This document shows positions 25,645-33,524 of a stretch of DNA of 64,000 nt, in pieces. How positions within the stretch are numbered: position 1 is the first letter of the stretch; every line of letters starts with the position of its first letter. The stretch lies in sequence record MT446415.1; one strand, written 5' to 3'. The notes beneath the pieces were generated by a model. It was not told where the DNA came from. It saw only the letters and a list, made by a program, of their open reading frames with translations, and made no database searches. The position numbers and the translations under genes are program-made. This DNA comes from Escherichia virus TH44.

Positions 25645-26823
25645 ATGTCTATTGCAGATTTGAAATCCCGTTTGATTAAAGCTTCTACATCCAAAATGAC
25701 CGCGACTCTTACCAAGTCCAAGTTTTTTAATGATAAAGATGTAGTTCGTACAAAAATCCCGATGCTGAACATTGCAATCAGCGGTGCACTAGATGGTGGT
25801 ATGCAGTCAGGTTTGACTATTTTTGCTGGTCCGTCAAAACACTTTAAATCCAATATGGGTTTAACGATGGTCTCTGCATATATGAACAAATACCCCGATG
25901 CAATCTGTTTGTTCTATGATTCAGAATTTGGTATCACAGAAGCATATCTTCGTGCAATGAAAGTTGACCCGGAACGTGTTATCCATACACCAATCCAGTC
26001 GGTTGAACAATTGAAAGTTGATATGGTTAACCAGCTTGAAGCAATTGAGCGTGGTGAAAAAGTCATTATCTTTATTGACTCAATCGGTAACATGGCGTCG
26101 AAAAAAGAAACAGAAGATGCGATGAACGAAAAAGTCGTTGGCGATATGACCCGTGCTAAATCCTTGAAATCTCTATTCCGTATTGTTACTCCGTATTTTA
26201 GTATCAAGGATATTCCTTGTGTCGCGGTTAACCATACAATCGAGACGATTGAGATGTACAGCAAAACCGTTATGACTGGTGGTACTGGTGTTATGTATTC
26301 TGCTGATACCGTATTCATTATCGGTAAACGCCAGATTAAAGAAACCGGTAAAGAACTTGAAGGTTTCCAATTTGTTCTGAACGCCGAAAAATCTCGTATG
26401 GTCAAAGAGAAAAGTAAATTCTTCATTGATGTAAAATTCGATGGTGGGATTGACCCGTATTCTGGCCTGCTTGATATGGCAATGGAAATCGGATTTGTGG
26501 TGAAACCGAAAGTTGGTTGGTATAACCGTGAATATCTTGATGTTGAGACCGGTGAAATGGTCCGCGAAGAAAAATCATGGCGTGCAAAAGATACCAACTG
26601 TACTGAATTCTGGGGCCCGTTGTTCAAGCACGAACCTTTCCGTGACGCAATCAAACGTCATTACCAGCTGGGTGCAATCGATAGCAATGCTGTTGTTGAT
26701 GCCGAAGTTGATGCGCTTATTGCCTCCAAGGTTGAAAAATACTCCGCTCCTGAAGGTAAGACAAAACCGTCCGCGGCAGATATCGAAAACGATTTAGATA
26801 TGATGGAAGACCTTGATGAATGA
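25645..26823 (+). CDS. uvsX: RecA-like recombinase UvsX
   Basis: 392 aa; matches T4 UvsX as recalled (DLKSRLIKASTSK...GPSKHFKSN). Confidence 0.95.
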   Translation: MSIADLKSRLIKASTSKMTATLTKSKFFNDKDVVRTKIPMLNIAISGALDGGMQSGLTIFAGPSKHFKSNMGLTMVSAYMNKYPDAICLFYDSEFGITEAYLRAMKVDPERVIHTPIQSVEQLKVDMVNQLEAIERGEKVIIFIDSIGNMASKKETEDAMNEKVVGDMTRAKSLKSLFRIVTPYFSIKDIPCVAVNHTIETIEMYSKTVMTGGTGVMYSADTVFIIGKRQIKETGKELEGFQFVLNAEKSRMVKEKSKFFIDVKFDGGIDPYSGLLDMAMEIGFVVKPKVGWYNREYLDVETGEMVREEKSWRAKDTNCTEFWGPLFKHEPFRDAIKRHYQLGAIDSNAVVDAEVDALIASKVEKYSAPEGKTKPSAADIENDLDMMEDLDE

Positions 26824-27157
26824 TATCGATTTATCTGATTTAGATAATTTCGAGAAAGATGCGGAGGGAGCTAAGGCTCCTTCTGTACCTTACTACGAAA
26901 AAAGTTTGGAGATTATCCGGCAATCCATGGGAACCGTACGACAGGAAATTCTGTTATCACTCCCTGATGGGTCCAGTCACATTGTGTACGTAACCGGAAT
27001 TAAAATTGAACCATCTGGAAAAGTTTCAGTTGATTTCGGCACCCCTTCTGAAGACCGCAAAGCGGAGCTTGCAGTGCATGTAGAAAAGTGTGTTACAATG
27101 CAAATACAAGATGAAATTGATAAGATTAAAATGAAAAAGAGGTGGTGGAAGTGGTAG
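26813..27157 (+). CDS. hypothetical protein (position of T4 gene 40)
   Basis: 114 aa between uvsX and 41. Confidence 0.5.
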   Translation: MMNDIDLSDLDNFEKDAEGAKAPSVPYYEKSLEIIRQSMGTVRQEILLSLPDGSSHIVYVTGIKIEPSGKVSVDFGTPSEDRKAELAVHVEKCVTMQIQDEIDKIKMKKRWWKW

Positions 27158-28581
27158 AAACTATTTTATCCCAGCTACTCTTTAACAAGGAATATTTTGT
27201 TAAAGTCTGGCCATATCTGAATAACACATATTTTGAAAAGGGTCCTGCAAAGACCCTTTTTAATACGATTAACGAACACGTAAAAGAATATCAAGCGGTA
27301 CCAACTAAGACTGCACTTGATATCGCGCTCGACAGTTCTGACCTTTCTGAAGTCGAATATGAAGGCACAAAGAAACTCTTAGGAGTCCTGGCCGATACTC
27401 CAGAAGACCAGGAATGGTTGGTTAAAGAAACCGAGAAGTATGTGCAGAAGTCTGCGATGTTCAATGCCACATCCAGGATTATCGAAATCCAGAGTAATGC
27501 CGAACTTCCGAAAGACAAACGTGATAAACGAATCCCGGATATTGGCGCTATCCCCGACATCATGCGCGATGCATTGTCTATCTGTTTTGACTCTGCTCTG
27601 GGTCATGACTGGTTAAACGATTACGAAGCTCGATTCCAGACTTATCTGAACAAATCGAAGAAGGTTCCGTTCCGTATTAACATCCTGAATAAAATCACAA
27701 AGGGTGGGGTTGAGTACGGTACAGAGAACGTTTTACTGGCCGGGACAAACGTCGGGAAATCCCTTGGACTTTGTTCGTTAGCGGCTGACTATCTTCAGAC
27801 TGGCCATAATGTGCTTTATATAAGCATGGAAATGGCAGAAGAAGTATGTGCCAAGCGTATTGACGCCAACTTGCTGGATGTATCTCTGGATGATATTGAT
27901 GAAGGTCATATATCGTGGGCAGAATACAAAGCTAAGATGGAAAAATGGCGTGCAGCAGGGACTCTTGGGACTCTGAAGATAAAACAATATCCAACTGGCG
28001 GTGCTCATGCGGATACCTTTCGTGCATTGCTGAATGAATACAAACTGAAGCAAGGGTTTGTGCCGGATGTGATTATTGTTGACTACCTAGCAATCTGTGC
28101 AAGCTCAAGACTGAAAACGTTTACCGAAAACAGTTACGGTCTGATTAAGATGGTTGCAGAAGAACTTCGTGGTCTGGCGGTCGAGAAAAATGTGGTCCTG
28201 TGGACTGCAGCACAGACAACCAGGGGTGCGAACGTTGCAGCTGAGATTGATATGGCTGACATCGCAGAATCATTTGGTATTGCTCACACGGCCGACTTTA
28301 TGTTGGGTGTTGTTGAGACCGAAGAATTCGCTCAAATGGGACTACAGTTAATCAAACAGCTTAAGTCTCGTTATGGCGATAAGAACTACTATAATAAATT
28401 CAAGATGGGTGTTAAGAAAGGTAATCAGCGCTGGTATGAGGTTGATGATGATTCAGCTCCTAAACAAGGCCCTACGGTTAAAGAAGCCACTGGTGAGATG
28501 AATCGCCAGGCTGAAATGAATAGACAAACCAGGGTCAACAGGAGCGACCTGGACGACCTTGCTGCTCAAATGAAATTCTAA
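27142..28581 (+). CDS. 41: replicative DNA helicase gp41 (DnaB-like)
   Basis: 479 aa; Walker A 'GTNVGKSLG', RecA-like core. Confidence 0.94.
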   Translation: MVEVVETILSQLLFNKEYFVKVWPYLNNTYFEKGPAKTLFNTINEHVKEYQAVPTKTALDIALDSSDLSEVEYEGTKKLLGVLADTPEDQEWLVKETEKYVQKSAMFNATSRIIEIQSNAELPKDKRDKRIPDIGAIPDIMRDALSICFDSALGHDWLNDYEARFQTYLNKSKKVPFRINILNKITKGGVEYGTENVLLAGTNVGKSLGLCSLAADYLQTGHNVLYISMEMAEEVCAKRIDANLLDVSLDDIDEGHISWAEYKAKMEKWRAAGTLGTLKIKQYPTGGAHADTFRALLNEYKLKQGFVPDVIIVDYLAICASSRLKTFTENSYGLIKMVAEELRGLAVEKNVVLWTAAQTTRGANVAAEIDMADIAESFGIAHTADFMLGVVETEEFAQMGLQLIKQLKSRYGDKNYYNKFKMGVKKGNQRWYEVDDDSAPKQGPTVKEATGEMNRQAEMNRQTRVNRSDLDDLAAQMKF

Positions 28582-28600
28582 AGACCTTCGGGTCTTTTTC
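28581..28600 (+). terminator. rho-independent terminator
   Basis: agacc-ttcg-ggtct + TTTTT. Confidence 0.7.
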
Positions 28601-28670
28601 ATTTAGGGGGTTTACATCCTCATAAAAGGGGTGTACTATTATCCCATCAACTACTGATGAGGATAATAAA

Positions 28671-28919
28671 ATGTTATTAGTTAATGTGCATTACCAGTTC
28701 AAATCTGAAGAAGCTCTCCAAAAGTATGCTGACATTTGTGAGCATAATAAAAGAACAGCTGCCATTGTTGGTCTGAAGCCTTTTAAAATTTTGGATTGCT
28801 CCTTGAACAGAGCAAGGCGCTGGTGTAGTGTTGCCTGTCATGCTTCAGTTGAAGGGAATGATTATTTTTTCATTACTTTCAATGCACAAGATTTTCATTT
28901 AATTAATGAATTAAAATAG
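28671..28919 (+). CDS. hypothetical cysteine-containing protein
   Basis: 82 aa; class-B leader upstream. Confidence 0.5.
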   Translation: MLLVNVHYQFKSEEALQKYADICEHNKRTAAIVGLKPFKILDCSLNRARRWCSVACHASVEGNDYFFITFNAQDFHLINELK

Positions 28920-28948
28920 TGTACAAACCCCTTGTCTTAGGACATAAT
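28920..28948 (+). promoter_or_regulatory. early-type promoter with class-A leader
   Basis: TGTACA-17-CATAAT then 'CCATACTGAGTTACACAA'. Confidence 0.6.
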
Positions 28949-28998
28949 GATTCCATACTGAGTTACACAATAAACCAACTGTTAAAAAGGAAAACCAT

Positions 28999-29301
28999 AT
29001 GTTTAATCAAACCGATATGAACCGTTACTATTTTGGTCAGTTCGCTCGCCGTGATGAAAACTGTGCTGCTCTTATCGCATCAGGCATTCAAACTGGTAAA
29101 TTAATAAAGCTCAAAAGCGATGTTCAACCTTCATCTGTTCGCAGCTCTCTTCGTGAGTATCTGCTTGCAGGCGGTGAAGTGTACGTCATCGCTGAACCTT
29201 TTGTTAACGTGTGTGATGATTACACAATTAGTGTGACTGTTATGCACCCAACTACTGGGAAAATTCGTTGTCTGACTATGCACAACTATGAGTTGGCGTA
29301 A
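28999..29301 (+). CDS. hypothetical protein
   Basis: 100 aa ORF. Confidence 0.5.
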   Translation: MFNQTDMNRYYFGQFARRDENCAALIASGIQTGKLIKLKSDVQPSSVRSSLREYLLAGGEVYVIAEPFVNVCDDYTISVTVMHPTTGKIRCLTMHNYELA

Positions 29302-29310
29302 GTGAACAAA

Positions 29311-29332
29311 AGGGGCTTACAGCCCCTTTTTC
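29311..29332 (+). terminator. rho-independent terminator
   Basis: aggggc-ttaca-gcccct + TTTTT. Confidence 0.65.
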
Positions 29333-29370
29333 TTATGTTATAATGACTCTATCAACTACTGGAGAATAAA

Positions 29371-29688
29371 ATGAAAACCATTGATTGCAAGGCAGAATAC
29401 AAAGTTTATTATCATGGGTCAAGCTCTAATGCTGGAATCCAAAATATGCTTTGTCCTCCTGATGCAACTGGTGTTCTGTCAGAAGTTGGACGTAAGAAAA
29501 ATTTAGGGCGTGTGTTTTTTACTGAAGATATTGGTTTGGCGCGTATCTATGCAGGAAGAGCAGCTCGCTCATATGGAGGAGAACCCCGTCTTTATCGTGT
29601 GATTGCACCTGTTGACGTGGTTTGTTTAAATGACACTAAAGGCGCAACAGTTTATCACGCCGCATGGGCGTTTTGTGAGGAAATCTAA
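29371..29688 (+). CDS. small protein with ART/PARP-like 'YHGS' motif
   Basis: 105 aa; 'YYHGSSSNAGIQNM' and 'GRVFFTEDIGLARIYA' resemble the H-G-S and Y-region motifs of H-Y-E ADP-ribosyltransferase folds (recalled). Confidence 0.5.
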   Translation: MKTIDCKAEYKVYYHGSSSNAGIQNMLCPPDATGVLSEVGRKKNLGRVFFTEDIGLARIYAGRAARSYGGEPRLYRVIAPVDVVCLNDTKGATVYHAAWAFCEEI

Positions 29689-29892
29689 ATGTATAAATTA
29701 GAGAACGTAGTGTTTATTGGTTGGTTTGAAAATGGTAATATGTTTACCAAAGAAACCGCGCTGGATGTCAGTGACAAAAATATGATTGAATGGGTTACAG
29801 TGCAGTATGCAGAAGTGAATAATGCGCTGGTTAAAGCCTTTGTTAATGACAATAAAGTTTTTGAATATGATGCCCGCATTGAGGAAATCTAA
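29689..29892 (+). CDS. hypothetical protein, paralog of next ORF
   Basis: 67 aa; shares 'NALV.AFV.D' segment and 'GAGGAAATCTAAATG' junction with 29893..30234. Confidence 0.45.
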   Translation: MYKLENVVFIGWFENGNMFTKETALDVSDKNMIEWVTVQYAEVNNALVKAFVNDNKVFEYDARIEEI

Positions 29893-30234
29893 ATGACTTT
29901 TAATCCAGAAGACCGCGTAAAAGTAACAATCAAAGTGAGTGCCGTTGGCGTTCCATCTTTTGAGCGCTCAAGTATGTTCCATCCCGCAGGTATTCACTGG
30001 TATGTCCAGAAGACTGCTGATAACTATAATGCACTGGTTGAAGCTTTTGTTGATGACAAGCTAATTCATAAAGTAGACATGCGTAAGGGTACTGCATTGC
30101 GTAATCTGATTTTGACCGTTGAAGCTCAACTGGTAAATGAAGAAATCTGCCTTACTGATATTGAAGCGGCTCTTCATATTGCGCGTGCTGAATATTACAA
30201 CTTGACTGGTTTTTCAGTTGAAGGTGAAAAATAA
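29893..30234 (+). CDS. hypothetical protein, paralog of previous ORF
   Basis: 113 aa. Confidence 0.5.
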   Translation: MTFNPEDRVKVTIKVSAVGVPSFERSSMFHPAGIHWYVQKTADNYNALVEAFVDDKLIHKVDMRKGTALRNLILTVEAQLVNEEICLTDIEAALHIARAEYYNLTGFSVEGEK

Positions 30235-30235
30235 G

Positions 30236-30264
30236 TGTACATCAAAGGGATAATGCAGTATATT
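30236..30264 (+). promoter_or_regulatory. early-type promoter; -10 flanked by palindrome GGGATAAT/ATTATCCC
   Basis: TGTACA-17-TATATT, class-B leader. Confidence 0.5.
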
Positions 30265-30292
30265 ATCCCTATCAACTACTGAGGAGATTGAA

Positions 30293-30586
30293 ATGAAAAA
30301 GTTATTAATCGCAGCAATTCTTACCGTAGCATCATGTGGTACAGCTCCAGTTACTGCTGGACTTGATAAAGACCTTTGTGAGTGGTCTATGACTGCGGAC
30401 CAGACTGATGTTGAACACCAGATTTATGCTGACATCATGAACATTACTAAACGTGACCGCCCAGATATGGTTAAAGAAGTATCTGACCAACTGGCTTCTG
30501 GTGACGTTATGCAGTATAACTATGTTCTGTATTGCGATGCTTCATTTGACAACAGCAAGATTGTTCAATGGGTTACAGGTGAATAA
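30293..30586 (+). CDS. putative lipoprotein
   Basis: 97 aa; signal peptide with lipobox 'VASCG'. Confidence 0.5.
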   Translation: MKKLLIAAILTVASCGTAPVTAGLDKDLCEWSMTADQTDVEHQIYADIMNITKRDRPDMVKEVSDQLASGDVMQYNYVLYCDASFDNSKIVQWVTGE

Positions 30587-30587
30587 A

Positions 30588-31028
30588 ATGATTAACAGAA
30601 ATTTAGTTATCAAAAAACTTCGTTGTAAAAATCAAAATGCACAAGCATACAGGATGTTTTGGAGCGACGAGCCCATTCAATACCTGGGTTATTTTCTTGT
30701 TGATAGTGATAATAGAATTACGTTTGCTCATAAACTTCTTAACAAAGAATTAAACCATTGGCAAGAACTTATTGCGGTCAAGTCTAAATTATTTTCGCGC
30801 AATACAATACACCAATTGGTTTATTTTTTCGCTGATGGTATTCCTGACAAGGTTGAGTTTGACGGGTTTGAATTTAAAGACATCAACCCTGATAATGAAT
30901 TGAATGACAGTATTGTTAATATGGGTATCCCGGGTAAGTACATCAAAAACAGTCTTTTGAAACTTCTGGAAACCCCTGTATATTCAGTTGACGACCAGAT
31001 TTTTAATGCCTTCATGAAGCGAGATTAA
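30588..31028 (+). CDS. hypothetical protein
   Basis: 146 aa; C-terminus 'DDQIFNAFMKRD' lies in a 43-bp direct repeat. Confidence 0.5.
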   Translation: MINRNLVIKKLRCKNQNAQAYRMFWSDEPIQYLGYFLVDSDNRITFAHKLLNKELNHWQELIAVKSKLFSRNTIHQLVYFFADGIPDKVEFDGFEFKDINPDNELNDSIVNMGIPGKYIKNSLLKLLETPVYSVDDQIFNAFMKRD

Positions 31029-31032
31029 TATG
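30990..31032 (+). repeat. 43-bp direct repeat, copy 1
   Basis: gacgaccagatttttaatgccttcatgaagcgagattaatatg. Confidence 0.8.
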
Positions 31033-31184
31033 CATATTCAAAGTGATTTATCTTATCTGAATTTTGAATTAGTTAAAAATAATGATGGTAATGCTCATTA
31101 TGAATTCCGTGAACCCAGGTTTAATCAGGCGCGATTGGTTATATTATCGTTAAAGATGATGTTATCATAAAGGCTCGCTCATTT

Positions 31185-31400
31185 ATGGTAATGAATGGAC
31201 CGTATGAAGATACTCGTGGCTACCCATTTGATAAAAAGAATGTGCGCGATTGTGCAGTCTGGATAACTGGAAACCCTGAAATTGGGGTCATGTTATCTAC
31301 TGAAGCAAATGACATTCTGGAAGCGGGCTGGGTCAAAGCTCAAGAACCGCCTACTGATATTGATGACCAGATTTTTAATGCTTTCATGAAGCGAGGTTAA
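31185..31400 (+). CDS. hypothetical protein
   Basis: 71 aa; C-terminus 'DDQIFNAFMKRG' in repeat copy 2. Confidence 0.4.
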   Translation: MVMNGPYEDTRGYPFDKKNVRDCAVWITGNPEIGVMLSTEANDILEAGWVKAQEPPTDIDDQIFNAFMKRG

Positions 31401-31404
31401 TATG
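31362..31404 (+). repeat. 43-bp direct repeat, copy 2
   Basis: gatgaccagatttttaatgctttcatgaagcgaggttaatatg; few mismatches to copy 1. Confidence 0.8.
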
Positions 31405-31623
31405 TTTGTTTTGACACAATTCTCTAAAGCAATATATAGTTACACTTGTCAGTGGGAAGTCTTTATTGATACTCCATCTCCCAAGTATGGAGTTTTTGGA
31501 CGAGTAACTACTCAAGCCTACGTTGCACGACCGACTAAACGTCAGATTCGTAAACTTAAAAAGGCGCATCGTCAACTGATTAAAAGAAGGGAACAATATG
31601 AGTGCAATGTGTACGGGCTCTAA
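31402..31623 (+). CDS. hypothetical basic protein
   Basis: 73 aa ORF. Confidence 0.4.
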   Translation: MFVLTQFSKAIYSYTCQWEVFIDTPSPKYGVFGRVTTQAYVARPTKRQIRKLKKAHRQLIKRREQYECNVYGL

Positions 31624-31789
31624 GATTTCTGTCTTCCAGATTTTTGAAGAATATGAAATCGTGTCGCAAGACCAAGAAGCAATCCATGTTATCGCTGATG
31701 ATGGTGTTACCTGGATTATTCCGTTGTATCATGAAGACACTTATGAAGTGACTGATGCAAATGGTGATAAAGCTATCTTCGTTGTATAA
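31598..31789 (+). CDS. hypothetical acidic protein
   Basis: 63 aa ORF. Confidence 0.4.
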   Translation: MSAMCTGSKISVFQIFEEYEIVSQDQEAIHVIADDGVTWIIPLYHEDTYEVTDANGDKAIFVV

Positions 31790-32008
31790 ATAGCGGAAAG
31801 GGGGTGTTATGAAAACATTCAAAGATTTTATCAACGAAGATATGGTTGCTGGTGACGCAGGTGGAAACCCAACTAATATCGCAACAGGTACCACTTCCGG
31901 GGCAGTTGTCAATAAAGGCCCTGAACAAATCCCATCAAAAAAGCGTAAGAACAAAGACGATAAACCTACAGTATAATGGTCCTCCGGGACCATTGAAATG
32001 AGGAAACT

Positions 32009-33037
32009 ATGTCATATATTGATAGAGAATTTGCAGTCAGAGCTTTATCGTATCAACCACGTTATAGAGAAGTCACCGGGAGCACATTTAAAGCAAACTG
32101 TCGTTGCAAGGTTTGTGGGGACTCCCAGAAAGATTCACACAAGGCTCGATTCTGGGCGTATACTAATCCGGCTGATGGCGCGGTTTACGTGAAATGTTTT
32201 AACTGTGACTACTCCACGCATATAAGCAAATACATAAAAGAGTTTGAGCCGGATTTACACCGGGAATATATGGTCGAGAAGTATAAGGAGAATGCCTTTG
32301 GGCGGCAACGTACTGAAGTTACAGAAGCTCCGAAAGAACCAGAAAAAACTCCGGTTATTGAGCAGCTTGCTTTTTGTGAAAGACTCGATACTTTACCAGA
32401 AGCACATCCGATAGTTAAGTATGTAAAAAGTCGATGTATTCCGAGCAATGTTTGGAACCGACTATGGTTTACAAACCAATGGCCTGCATTAGTTAACTCC
32501 GTTAATCCTGGGACGTATAAGAATGAAACGAATGAACCACGCTTGGTTATTCCTATCTTCAACGGCAAAAAAGAAATCGAATCTTTCCAAGGACGAGCTC
32601 TTCGCAAAGATGCACCACAAAAATATATCACAATCAAAGCTCACCCAGAAGCTTCCAAAGTCTATGGCGTAGACAAGATTGATGAGCGTAAACGCGTATG
32701 GGTAATGGAAGGTCCGATTGATAGTTTGTTTATCCCTAACAGCATTGCGATAACCGGTGGAACATTAGCATTAGAAGCTGTTCCTTATCCAGAAACCAGA
32801 GTATGGGTGATGGACAACGAGCCAAGACATCCGGATACGATTAAACGTATGAAGAAGCTCGTTGAAGCTGGCGAAGCTGTTATGTTCTGGGACAATGCAC
32901 CATGGCATACGAAAGACATAAATGAGATGGTTAAATCAGAAGGGGCAACCCCTGAACAAATCGAATCATATATGGCCGATAACGTTGCTCAAGGATTGAT
33001 GGCGAGAATGCGACTTTCGAAGTACGCAAAAGTTTAG
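32009..33037 (+). CDS. 61: DNA primase gp61
   Basis: 342 aa; N-terminal zinc ribbon 'CRCKVCGDS...CFNC'. Confidence 0.92.
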   Translation: MSYIDREFAVRALSYQPRYREVTGSTFKANCRCKVCGDSQKDSHKARFWAYTNPADGAVYVKCFNCDYSTHISKYIKEFEPDLHREYMVEKYKENAFGRQRTEVTEAPKEPEKTPVIEQLAFCERLDTLPEAHPIVKYVKSRCIPSNVWNRLWFTNQWPALVNSVNPGTYKNETNEPRLVIPIFNGKKEIESFQGRALRKDAPQKYITIKAHPEASKVYGVDKIDERKRVWVMEGPIDSLFIPNSIAITGGTLALEAVPYPETRVWVMDNEPRHPDTIKRMKKLVEAGEAVMFWDNAPWHTKDINEMVKSEGATPEQIESYMADNVAQGLMARMRLSKYAKV

Positions 33038-33234
33038 GAAGGGATTCCGGTAAAGTAACCGATGATGGAATGGATATGTTCCATTGTGACCTGAGGTAAG
33101 TGTACCCCTTGTGTTGCAGCGATAGGCACAACCAGTAAGTTCCACAGGAAAACATCAAGAGCTAAAAAGCCCATGATGAGCTTCTTGTCTTTCTTACTGG
33201 TTAATTTCCAAATCTGATAGAATAATGTTCCCAT
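33034..33234 (-). CDS. small membrane protein, paralog A
   Basis: 66 aa; basic N-terminus then TM 'FLWNLLVVPIAATQG'; opposite strand to all neighbours. Confidence 0.45.
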   Translation of the reverse strand: MGTLFYQIWKLTSKKDKKLIMGFLALDVFLWNLLVVPIAATQGVHLPQVTMEHIHSIIGYFTGIPS

Positions 33235-33242
33235 AGTTCCAC

Positions 33243-33440
33243 CTATACAAGGCCGATTAATGCCAGTGAAACATCTACAACTGATTCGAGCGCGACGACT
33301 GGCAATATAATACCATGTGTCAATGCGACAGGGGCAACAATGAAGTTCCAGAGTAGAACTGAACAGAGTACCGAAAGGACCAGAATCGTTCGCTTACGAC
33401 TGCCTTTGATGGCTTGAATTAGACTAGATAGTTTTAGCAT
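33243..33440 (-). CDS. small membrane protein, paralog B
   Basis: 65 aa from ATG with AAAGGAGGA SD; TM 'LLWNFIVAPVALTHG'; 9 nt upstream of paralog A. Confidence 0.45.
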   Translation of the reverse strand: MLKLSSLIQAIKGSRKRTILVLSVLCSVLLWNFIVAPVALTHGIILPVVALESVVDVSLALIGLV

Positions 33441-33524
33441 ACATCCTCCTTTCTTGTATTTATGCTTCAAACCAATACGATATAATTAACATACAAACAA
33501 CATGAATTGATAAGGAAAAATATA

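Follow-up and report, generated by a model that had tools for sequence, protein, structure and literature searches.

The stretch analysed here comprises 64,000 nucleotides (nt) of Escherichia virus TH44 (sequence record MT446415.1; the window), and our subject is the interval that separates the gene of the replicative helicase gp41 from that of the primase gp61. We conclude with good confidence that this interval is the window phage's version of the hyperplastic 41-61 region of small host-interaction genes known for T4-like phages. All the hallmarks of the T4-type region were found: gp41 and gp61 flank the interval on the same strand, homologues of dmd, sp, 61.4 and 61.1 lie between them, and the content varies among close relatives. 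The interval measures 3,427 bp and is 89% coding, with every gene on the + strand. Small genes were observed between 41 and 61 in all T4-like phages examined (5-16 genes), and the interval lengths form a continuum in which T4 stands at the short end and the window is typical:

RB6: 1.34 kb, 5 genes
T4: 1,648 bp, 5 genes (dmd/61.5, 61.4, sp/61.3, 61.2/adfA, 61.1)
JS98: 2.4 kb, 8 genes
EAWsc9: about 2.5 kb, 8 genes
YenP8: about 2.5 kb, 9 genes
MN01: about 2.8 kb, 9 genes
VR20: about 3.1 kb, 10 genes
UPEC01: about 3.4 kb, 11 genes
TH44 (window): 3,427 bp, 11 genes
RB69: 3.7 kb, 11 genes (imm and imm.1 among them)
Acinetobacter phage Berthold (T4-like): 5.4 kb, 16 genes

An earlier note on this DNA (the original prediction) had described a 3.4-kb insertion separating helicase 41 from primase 61. 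Recent acquisition of several foreign genes at once, as a mobile island splitting a normally adjacent gene pair, would fit an interval twice as long as that of T4 (3,427 versus 1,648 bp), as well as the confinement of O1, O2 and O5 (see the gene list below) to few close relatives. However, genes occupy the 41-61 position in every T4-like phage examined, with 5 to 16 of them in T4, RB6, RB69, JS98 and the Acinetobacter phage, and homologues of T4's interval genes are interspersed over the entire block. Moreover, GC content changes little from the flanks to the interval (35-41%), integrase, transposase and homing endonuclease families were not among the families matched by the interval open reading frames (ORFs) in Pfam and PHROG scans, and the relatives differ by five separate small cassettes rather than by one block. 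The insertion is already largely refuted, and we regard it as highly improbable. Comparison across T-even genomes largely returned a block at this same position with known functions, an outcome that the original prediction had itself named as telling against its claim. This kind of region is already known, near-identical copies are present in GenBank, and known genes explain most of its notable features.

The window belongs to a T4-like coliphage of the Gaprivervirus group. Positions 27000-33200 match Escherichia phage UPEC01 (Gaprivervirus, Tevenvirinae) over their full length with 97.2% identity, and JS98 with about 79%. The gene order is uvsX (25645-26823), gene 40, gene 41, the interval, gene 61, two small minus-strand ORFs and gene 56. 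Within the interval there are 12 + strand ORFs of at least 46 amino acids (aa), which make 11 genes since 31030-31170 and 31185-31400 are one frameshifted gene; the original prediction was right about a string of small ORFs but counted about 14. A 33-aa GTG ORF at 28919-29020 was not counted as a gene, because it overlaps promoter 2 and is unsupported. The genes of the interval and its flanks are the following:

27142..28581, + strand: gp41, replicative helicase, left flank; 479-aa ORF, annotated as gp41 in UPEC01, JS98 and T4; 65% identity to T4 gp41
28671..28919, + strand: O1, 82 aa, resembles the N-terminal part of T4 GoF (PHROG goF E 3.6e-20; 33% identity over 63 aa to T4 GoF, E 1e-7)
28999..29301, + strand: O2, 100 aa, lineage-restricted ORFan (phrog_17014 E 2e-69)
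29371..29688, + strand: O3, 105 aa, standalone Arr/Tpt1-like ADP-ribosyltransferase (ART)-fold protein; corresponds to RB69 ORF040c and JS98 orf34
29689..29892, + strand: O4, Dmd (T4 61.5); Pfam Dmd E 1.1e-20, 74 bits against a 27-bit cutoff; 56% identity to T4 Dmd
29893..30234, + strand: O5, 113 aa, Dmd-like N-terminal half and unrelated C-terminal part; in the slot of a 79-aa 61.4-type gene of MN01, YenP8 and JS98
30293..30586, + strand: O6, Spackle (T4 sp/61.3); Pfam T4_Spackle E 1.4e-43, 148 bits; 66% identity to T4 Sp
30588..31028, + strand: O7, 146 aa, in the AdfA (61.2) position; 37% identity over its last 63 residues to T4 gp61.2, E 2e-5; tail SVDDQIFNAFMKRD
31030..31400, + strand: O8+O9 (O8/9), second AdfA-tail gene, frameshifted; 116-122 aa when intact in relatives; O9 tail DIDDQIFNAFMKRG
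31402..31623, + strand: O10, 73 aa, T4 gp61.4 homologue (Pfam DUF7279 E 9.2e-20, 71 bits)
31598..31789, + strand: O11, 63 aa; JS98 orf28, annotated as similar to RB69 ORF033c (phrog_3249 E 2.5e-33)
31809..31976, + strand: O12, 55 aa, T4 gp61.1 homologue (75% identity over 52 aa to T4 61.1; phrog_1823 E 1e-32)
32009..33037, + strand: gp61, primase, right flank; 342-aa ORF, 61% identity to T4 gp61

The T4 and window intervals thus share their flanking genes, strand and direction, and of the five interval genes of T4, all but one have clear homologues in the window. The homologues of Dmd, Spackle, 61.4 and 61.1 overturn the earlier statement that no ORF here is recognisable as a named T4 protein. 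The fifth T4 gene, 61.2/AdfA, is represented only by its C-terminal region: two shorter proteins that carry just this region replace AdfA proper and are encoded directly 3' of sp, as AdfA is in T4. In contrast to T4, the window interval is about twice as long, with 11 genes against 5, its 61.4 homologue has moved downstream of the AdfA-type genes, and O1 (GoF-like), O2, O3 (ART), O5 (Dmd-like) and O11 are additional. UPEC01 shows an identical gene order at 97% identity, and JS98 (Dhakavirus) and RB69 (Mosigvirus) have O3-dmd, sp, an AdfA-type gene, O11 and 61.1 in common with the window. RB69 differs by the presence of imm and imm.1 inside its interval (L013, 4012-4690), adjoining sp; in T4 we take these two genes to lie elsewhere, near gene 42.

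Promoters, junctions and cassette turnover

We then considered how the interval is organized. Early-promoter matches were confined to four intergenic gaps of 58-89 nt (28611, 28920, 29316 and 30236), and two terminator-like hairpins were found in the interval (28580-28597 and 29308-29330). The remaining seven junctions have 0-1 nt spacers, one 26-nt overlap or short gaps. The original prediction had given nearly every ORF its own promoter/leader or terminator, which applies to these four promoters and two terminators but not to the seven other junctions. The 0-1 nt spacers and overlaps that join most genes suggest translational coupling. The elements are as follows:

28580..28597, + strand: terminator-like hairpin (AAAGACCTTCGGGTCTTT) downstream of gene 41, with a T run behind it; left edge of the O1 and O1+O2 indels
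28611..28670, + strand: early-promoter/leader cassette 1, TTTACA-N17-TACTAT, then ATCAACTACTGATGAGGA...ATG
28920..28948, + strand: early-promoter-like site 2, TGTACA-N17-CATAAT; MN01 homology resumes exactly at this point
29308..29370, + strand: composite terminator/early promoter (PeSL-like) with leader; hairpin 29308-29330 with the -35 element CTTACA (29316) in its loop, N17, -10 element TATAAT
30236..30292, + strand: early-promoter/leader cassette 4, TGTACA-N17-TATATT, with a GGGATAAT/ATTATCCC hairpin over the -10 element
31785..31792, + strand: TATAAATA, which fits the late-promoter consensus of T4 and precedes the 61.1 homologue; weak

Three of the four promoters run on into a conserved leader, ATCAACTACTGA(T)GAGGA...ATG, with a Shine-Dalgarno sequence. 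The window contains the leader motif TCAACTACTG in 8 exact copies, of which the interval holds 3, and with one mismatch allowed 16 copies were counted against 3.9 expected. Seven + strand early cassettes are present genome-wide in the window (10921, 28647, 29352, 30272, 36807, 40903 and 51616); this genome-wide cassette consists of a GTGTACA-like -35 element, N17, a TATAAT-like -10 element and the leader (C/T)(A/T)TCAACTACTGA(T)GAGGA...ATG. Conservation of the leader is far above what a promoter alone would require. Late-promoter matches of the TATAAATA type numbered 4 in the window, with 4.6 expected by chance. A MotA-box pattern search of the interval gave no match, nor did an Rfam scan of 28000-33500 at E values up to 0.1. 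We propose that the interval is transcribed from four sigma-70-type early promoter/leader cassettes together with read-through from upstream, and that expression is probably early.

Plasticity was assessed by comparing the window with seven relatives, using a presence/absence matrix and breakpoints. Five cassette-level polymorphisms were observed, every one of which breaks at a gene junction:

28583-28918: O1 cassette, absent from VR20 and MN01
28583-29307: O1+O2 cassette, absent from EAWsc9 and YenP8
29896-30227: O5 cassette, swapped for a 79-aa 61.4-type gene in MN01, YenP8 and JS98
31033-31358: O8/9 cassette, absent from JS98; exactly between the two tail repeats
31405-31594: O10 cassette, absent from MN01, EAWsc9 and YenP8; begins where tail repeat 2 ends

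The cassette boundaries coincide with three kinds of junction repeat, namely the terminator/promoter cassettes, the 16-nt sequence TGAGGAAATCTAAATG, which is identical at the O3/dmd and dmd/O5 junctions, and a 45-nt repeat that encodes protein tails. Together with Dmd, Spackle, the AdfA-tail genes and the ART-fold gene, these five indels and swaps among close relatives bear out one part of the original prediction, that of a hyperplastic accessory region with anti-defence or host-interaction genes.

Composite terminator/early-promoter elements named PeSL have been described as mediators of modular shuffling in the hyperplastic regions of T4-like phages (Arbiol 2010, PMC2839356; Comeau 2014, PMC4122927). 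Similarly, the cassette boundaries of the window carry a hairpin and a TTTACW-N17-TAYWAT-like promoter, with the -35 element within the hairpin at 29308-29330, and three of the five indel or swap events begin or end at such elements (the O1 and O1+O2 edges and the right-hand O5 edge). The window differs from the published elements in that a clear terminator-promoter composite, a stem-loop with an early promoter, is present at one of the four sites (29308-29344), whereas the other three are promoters, and a hairpin, if there is one, only adjoins or overlaps them. Furthermore, the window sites extend into the conserved Shine-Dalgarno leader, and the two further kinds of junction repeat fall within coding sequence. 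The composite element at 29308-29370 directly follows gene 41 in EAWsc9 and YenP8. The breakpoint positions support a model in which whole cassettes would be gained, lost or swapped via homologous recombination at short repeated junctions, as has been proposed for PeSLs, and this fits PeSL-type modular shuffling.

The ADP-ribosyltransferase-fold protein O3 and the Dmd genes

Homologues of O3 were counted in 609 phage records, whose hosts include Escherichia, Klebsiella, Acinetobacter, Aeromonas and Vibrio; identities are mostly 60-90%, and some of the homologues carry the annotation putative ADP-ribosyl transferase. An AlphaFold (AF2) model of O3 reached a pLDDT of 86.6, and in Foldseek this model ranked the rifampin ADP-ribosyltransferase Arr (2HW2) first with probability 1.00 and a TM score of 0.61; BFVD agreed. 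In an alignment of 33 sequences, 18 columns, among them H15-G16, are invariant across genera, and E103 is at least 90% conserved. When the O3 profile was compared with 1.84 billion representatives, 244 relatives were recovered, many as domains in proteins of 500-3,900 aa. Ten of these relatives were scanned; most pass the Pfam Arr-ms cutoff in the O3-matching region, and some also carry ART-PolyVal, NUDIX, Toprim or GNAT domains. Multidomain proteins of this build are typical among the "polyvalent" proteins that phages and plasmids encode.

The link between O3 and Arr-ms is transitive: the O3 profile matches one relative, P0204, with E 5e-24, and P0204 in turn exceeds the 25-bit cutoff of Arr-ms with a score of 35 bits. 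An alignment via one relative pairs H15 of O3 with H19 of Arr and F49 of O3 with Y49 of Arr, and the position of Arr D84 is variable in O3, so that O3 differs from Arr in having Phe for Y49 and no acid at the D84 position. The candidates for the catalytic acid are the variable N87/D88 position and the near-invariant E103. No NCBIfam match was obtained for O3, nor was a PDB sequence matched by O3 or its family profile. Compared with Tpt1/KptA, whose NAD+-binding domain is the part that O3 resembles, O3 lacks the Tpt1 N-terminal RNA-binding domain. A PARP-type catalytic domain with an H-Y-E triad was not found; the PARP-like ORF of the original prediction does have an ADP-ribosyltransferase-like fold (29371-29688), but of the Arr/Tpt1 type. 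The ART fold of O3 is established at the level of the structural model, and catalytic competence is plausible from its sequence. Rifamycin is an unlikely substrate of O3 in a phage context. Early in infection, O3, encoded directly 5' of dmd, probably acts on a host target or on RNA, with NAD+ as the substrate of the modification. No experimental study of O3 emerged from literature searches.

One alternative is that O3 is a catalytically inactive ART-fold protein that serves as a binder or decoy, for example of NAD+-derived signals or host ART toxins. This would be consistent with the replacement of the middle Tyr of the H-Y-[EDQ] triad by an invariant Phe, with the variability of the D84-equivalent position and with the small size of O3, which at 105 aa is a minimal version of the fold; moreover, the neighbouring genes encode binders (Dmd and the AdfA type). 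However, H15-G16 is invariant and E103 highly conserved, the conservation of O3 across genera is very strong, as the 18 invariant columns indicate, and Phe could still stack on nicotinamide. We therefore hold an inactive O3 to be unlikely and retain the reading of O3 as a plausible enzyme.

A second alternative concerns the neighbouring gene. O4 encodes Dmd, the antitoxin that neutralises the host RnlA toxin, and the dmd start abuts the O3 stop directly (TAAATG). Iyer et al. 2022 (PMC9503650) predicted a toxin-antitoxin pair of a p0068-family ART and Dmd in Escherichia, Shigella and Salmonella phages, with RNA suggested as target. O3 and Dmd could similarly form a phage-borne pair in which O3 is the ART toxin and Dmd the antitoxin. 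Like the predicted pair, in which an H-Y-[EDQ]-type ART directly adjoins Dmd in T4-like phages of Escherichia and Shigella, the window has an ART-fold gene next to dmd; the O3-dmd adjacency is also present in JS98, RB69 and all Gapriverviruses examined, and the O3 domain occurs inside large multidomain proteins with ART-PolyVal, NUDIX and Toprim domains. In contrast, the pairing is not obligatory: O3 is missing from T4 and RB6, which do have Dmd, and O3 homologues of Klebsiella, Acinetobacter and Aeromonas phages (59-74% identical) have non-Dmd downstream neighbours. Dmd also has an established independent target, RnlA, and O3 was likened to p0068, but its membership of this family could not be confirmed by accession. 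Since O3 and dmd occur independently elsewhere, we rate an obligate toxin-antitoxin pair as doubtful and continue to treat O3 as a probable effector acting on a host or RNA target. O3 homologues outside the 41-61 interval were observed in Klebsiella (Slopekvirus; L008, 2093-2968) and Aeromonas (Tulanevirus; L010, 2183-2941) phages, both preceded by related 250-290-aa proteins (phrog_7439 and phrog_7204), which makes a second conserved neighbourhood.

Dmd is followed by O5, which corresponds to the tandem paralogs that had been noticed earlier: Dmd (29689-29892) and O5 (29893-30234) share 31% identity over 58 aa (BLASTP E 2e-6), and O5 matches PHROG Dmd with E 8.8e-6. Against Pfam Dmd (PF17587), O5 reached 19.1 bits, below the 27-bit gathering score. 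O5 forms a single protein cluster among 5.8 billion proteins and was found in 15 phage records; its single-sequence AF2 model has a pLDDT of 45. Residues 69-113 are 65% identical to part of a gene of phage ESCO10 annotated as modifier of suppressor tRNAs. By sequence comparison, a Dmd-like half and a piece of another gene seem to have been combined in O5. The dmd allele itself is 95.6% identical to that of JS98, with neighbouring genes at 70-86%, and 75.4% identical to that of YenP8, with neighbours at 92-99%; such discordance suggests that antitoxin alleles have been exchanged between genera.

AdfA-tail genes and the direct repeat

The T4 61.2 protein is AdfA, an anti-DarT factor (Pfam PF23813). 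T4 gp61.2 ends in ...SIDDQIFNAFMNRG, and RB69 gp61.2 and JS98 orf30 have the same ending. In the window, a gene directly 3' of sp (O7) carries the C-terminal tail DDQIFNAFM, which is invariant in T4, RB69, JS98 and both window copies. These copies lie within a direct repeat:

30988..31032, + strand: direct repeat copy 1, 45 nt; codons for the AdfA-type tail of O7, stop codon and next ATG
31360..31404, + strand: direct repeat copy 2, 45 nt; codons for the O9 tail, stop codon and next start codon

The two copies are 93% identical, so the 43-bp direct repeat of the original prediction was recovered at slightly greater length. At least three different protein bodies share this one tail at the slot 3' of sp. 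The O7 family is limited to JS98- and Gaprivervirus-type phages; a homologue search with O7 gave close relatives and one 34% match only, none with a Pfam AdfA domain, and a profile link to AdfA was not obtained. In RB69 AdfA, binding and neutralisation of DarT1 depend on a His at position 164. In our alignment, which is not reliable in this part, O7 lacks the equivalent His.

The intact form of O8/9 has full-length homologues of 47-49% identity in about 300 Tequatrovirus records, including the T2 gene annotated '61.2'. In the window, compared with four relatives (among them MN01, EAWsc9 and UPEC01), a 2-bp GC/CG insertion in GGCGCG at 31128-31133 splits this gene into ORFs of 46 and 71 aa, which indicates either a pseudogene or a sequencing error. 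The window differs from UPEC01, VR20 and MN01 (all Gaprivervirus), JS98 and RB69 in coupling an MN01-type O8/9 allele with a UPEC01-type O10, in addition to this private 2-bp frameshift. No database phage record exceeds 91.6% identity to the window arrangement at 30950-31450. O7 and O8/9 are probably binders of DarT-like toxins, as their tail and position suggest.

The 45-nt repeat need not take part in rearrangement: it could be a by-product of purifying selection on a shared C-terminal peptide. The tail amino acids are invariant from T4 to the window, and the DNA differences are mostly synonymous third-position changes (36 of 45 nt are shared by T4 and copy 1), which points to selection on the peptide. 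However, what JS98 is missing corresponds exactly to the segment enclosed by the two repeats, and the presence or absence of O10 begins exactly at the end of repeat 2. Moreover, the closest relative of the O8/9 body differs from that of both flanks, the body being 95.7% identical to MN01 and 90.8% to UPEC01 and the flanks closest to UPEC01 (97.5-99.4%). Selection as the sole explanation has some merit but is, in our estimate, rather improbable, and we prefer a repeat that would also serve as a junction for cassette exchange.

Other features and outlook

A 57% homologue of O1 was found within the 41-61 interval of RB6/RB3-type phages, and O1 is absent from VR20, MN01, EAWsc9, YenP8 and JS98. 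O2 was found in 21 phage records only, all at least 95% identical, and is absent from EAWsc9, YenP8, JS98 and T4. The assignment of O10 to 61.4 agrees with the match of T4 61.4 itself to DUF7279 (E 2.3e-20). An NCBIfam scan of ten interval ORFs gave no matches. Spackle (O6) is annotated "spackle periplasmic" in the T4 record; it presumably has a role in superinfection exclusion, and we take T4 Sp to be a soluble periplasmic protein. The ORF at 30293-30586 had been called a lipoprotein in the original prediction, and a signal peptide and a lipobox-like VASC are indeed visible by eye, but Pfam identifies the protein as Spackle.

To the right of the interval, a perfect hairpin (TGGTCC-TCCG-GGACCA, 31977-31992) without a T run stands right after the 61.1 stop codon and 16 nt before the start of gene 61; it might serve the primase gene as a signal for translation or RNA processing. 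The window has no dam at the T4 position of this gene, between genes 61 and 56; two small, hydrophobic minus-strand ORFs (33034-33234 and 33243-33470) are present there, labelled dam.1, holin family or hypothetical in relatives.

Several points weigh against our interpretation of how the interval works. The promoter and terminator calls are consensus matches, 29 of which were found against 19 expected, and the early timing is read from the sequence. O3 gave no direct match in Pfam, Arr-ms (PF12120) included; it has Phe in place of the middle Tyr of Arr, and where its catalytic acid lies is not certain. O7 had no Pfam AdfA match at E<0.1, and the intact form of O8/9 matched in its tail only, with 21 bits against a 27-bit cutoff; because of this, the anti-DarT function of O7 and O8/9 is an extrapolation. 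Finally, selection on the peptide suffices to explain the tail repeat, and a role in recombination rests solely on the breakpoint positions.

As a region, the interval is ordinary, and its value lies in the exact breakpoints, which show how a known T4-like hyperplastic region turns over. The proven anti-defence gene dmd and relatives of adfA here adjoin the uncharacterised O1, O2, O3, O5, O7, O8/9 and O11, which makes these reasonable candidates for a counter-defence screen. The ART-fold protein O3 is the strongest of them, with its many homologues in phages of several host genera; no experimental function for it was found in the literature searches. More speculatively, and at present with little likelihood, O3 would be an active minimal ART deployed early against RNA ends or against a host defence or RNA-decay component, and could be functionally linked to Dmd. 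DDQIFNAFM would be a common docking or regulatory peptide, by which exchangeable N-terminal bodies, namely those of AdfA, of the T2-type short form and of the JS98-type O7, could counter different DarT-like toxins. If both were true, that is, if O3 is active and the tail serves in docking, T4-like phages would have in this interval a set of tools devoted to ADP-ribosylation and to countering it.

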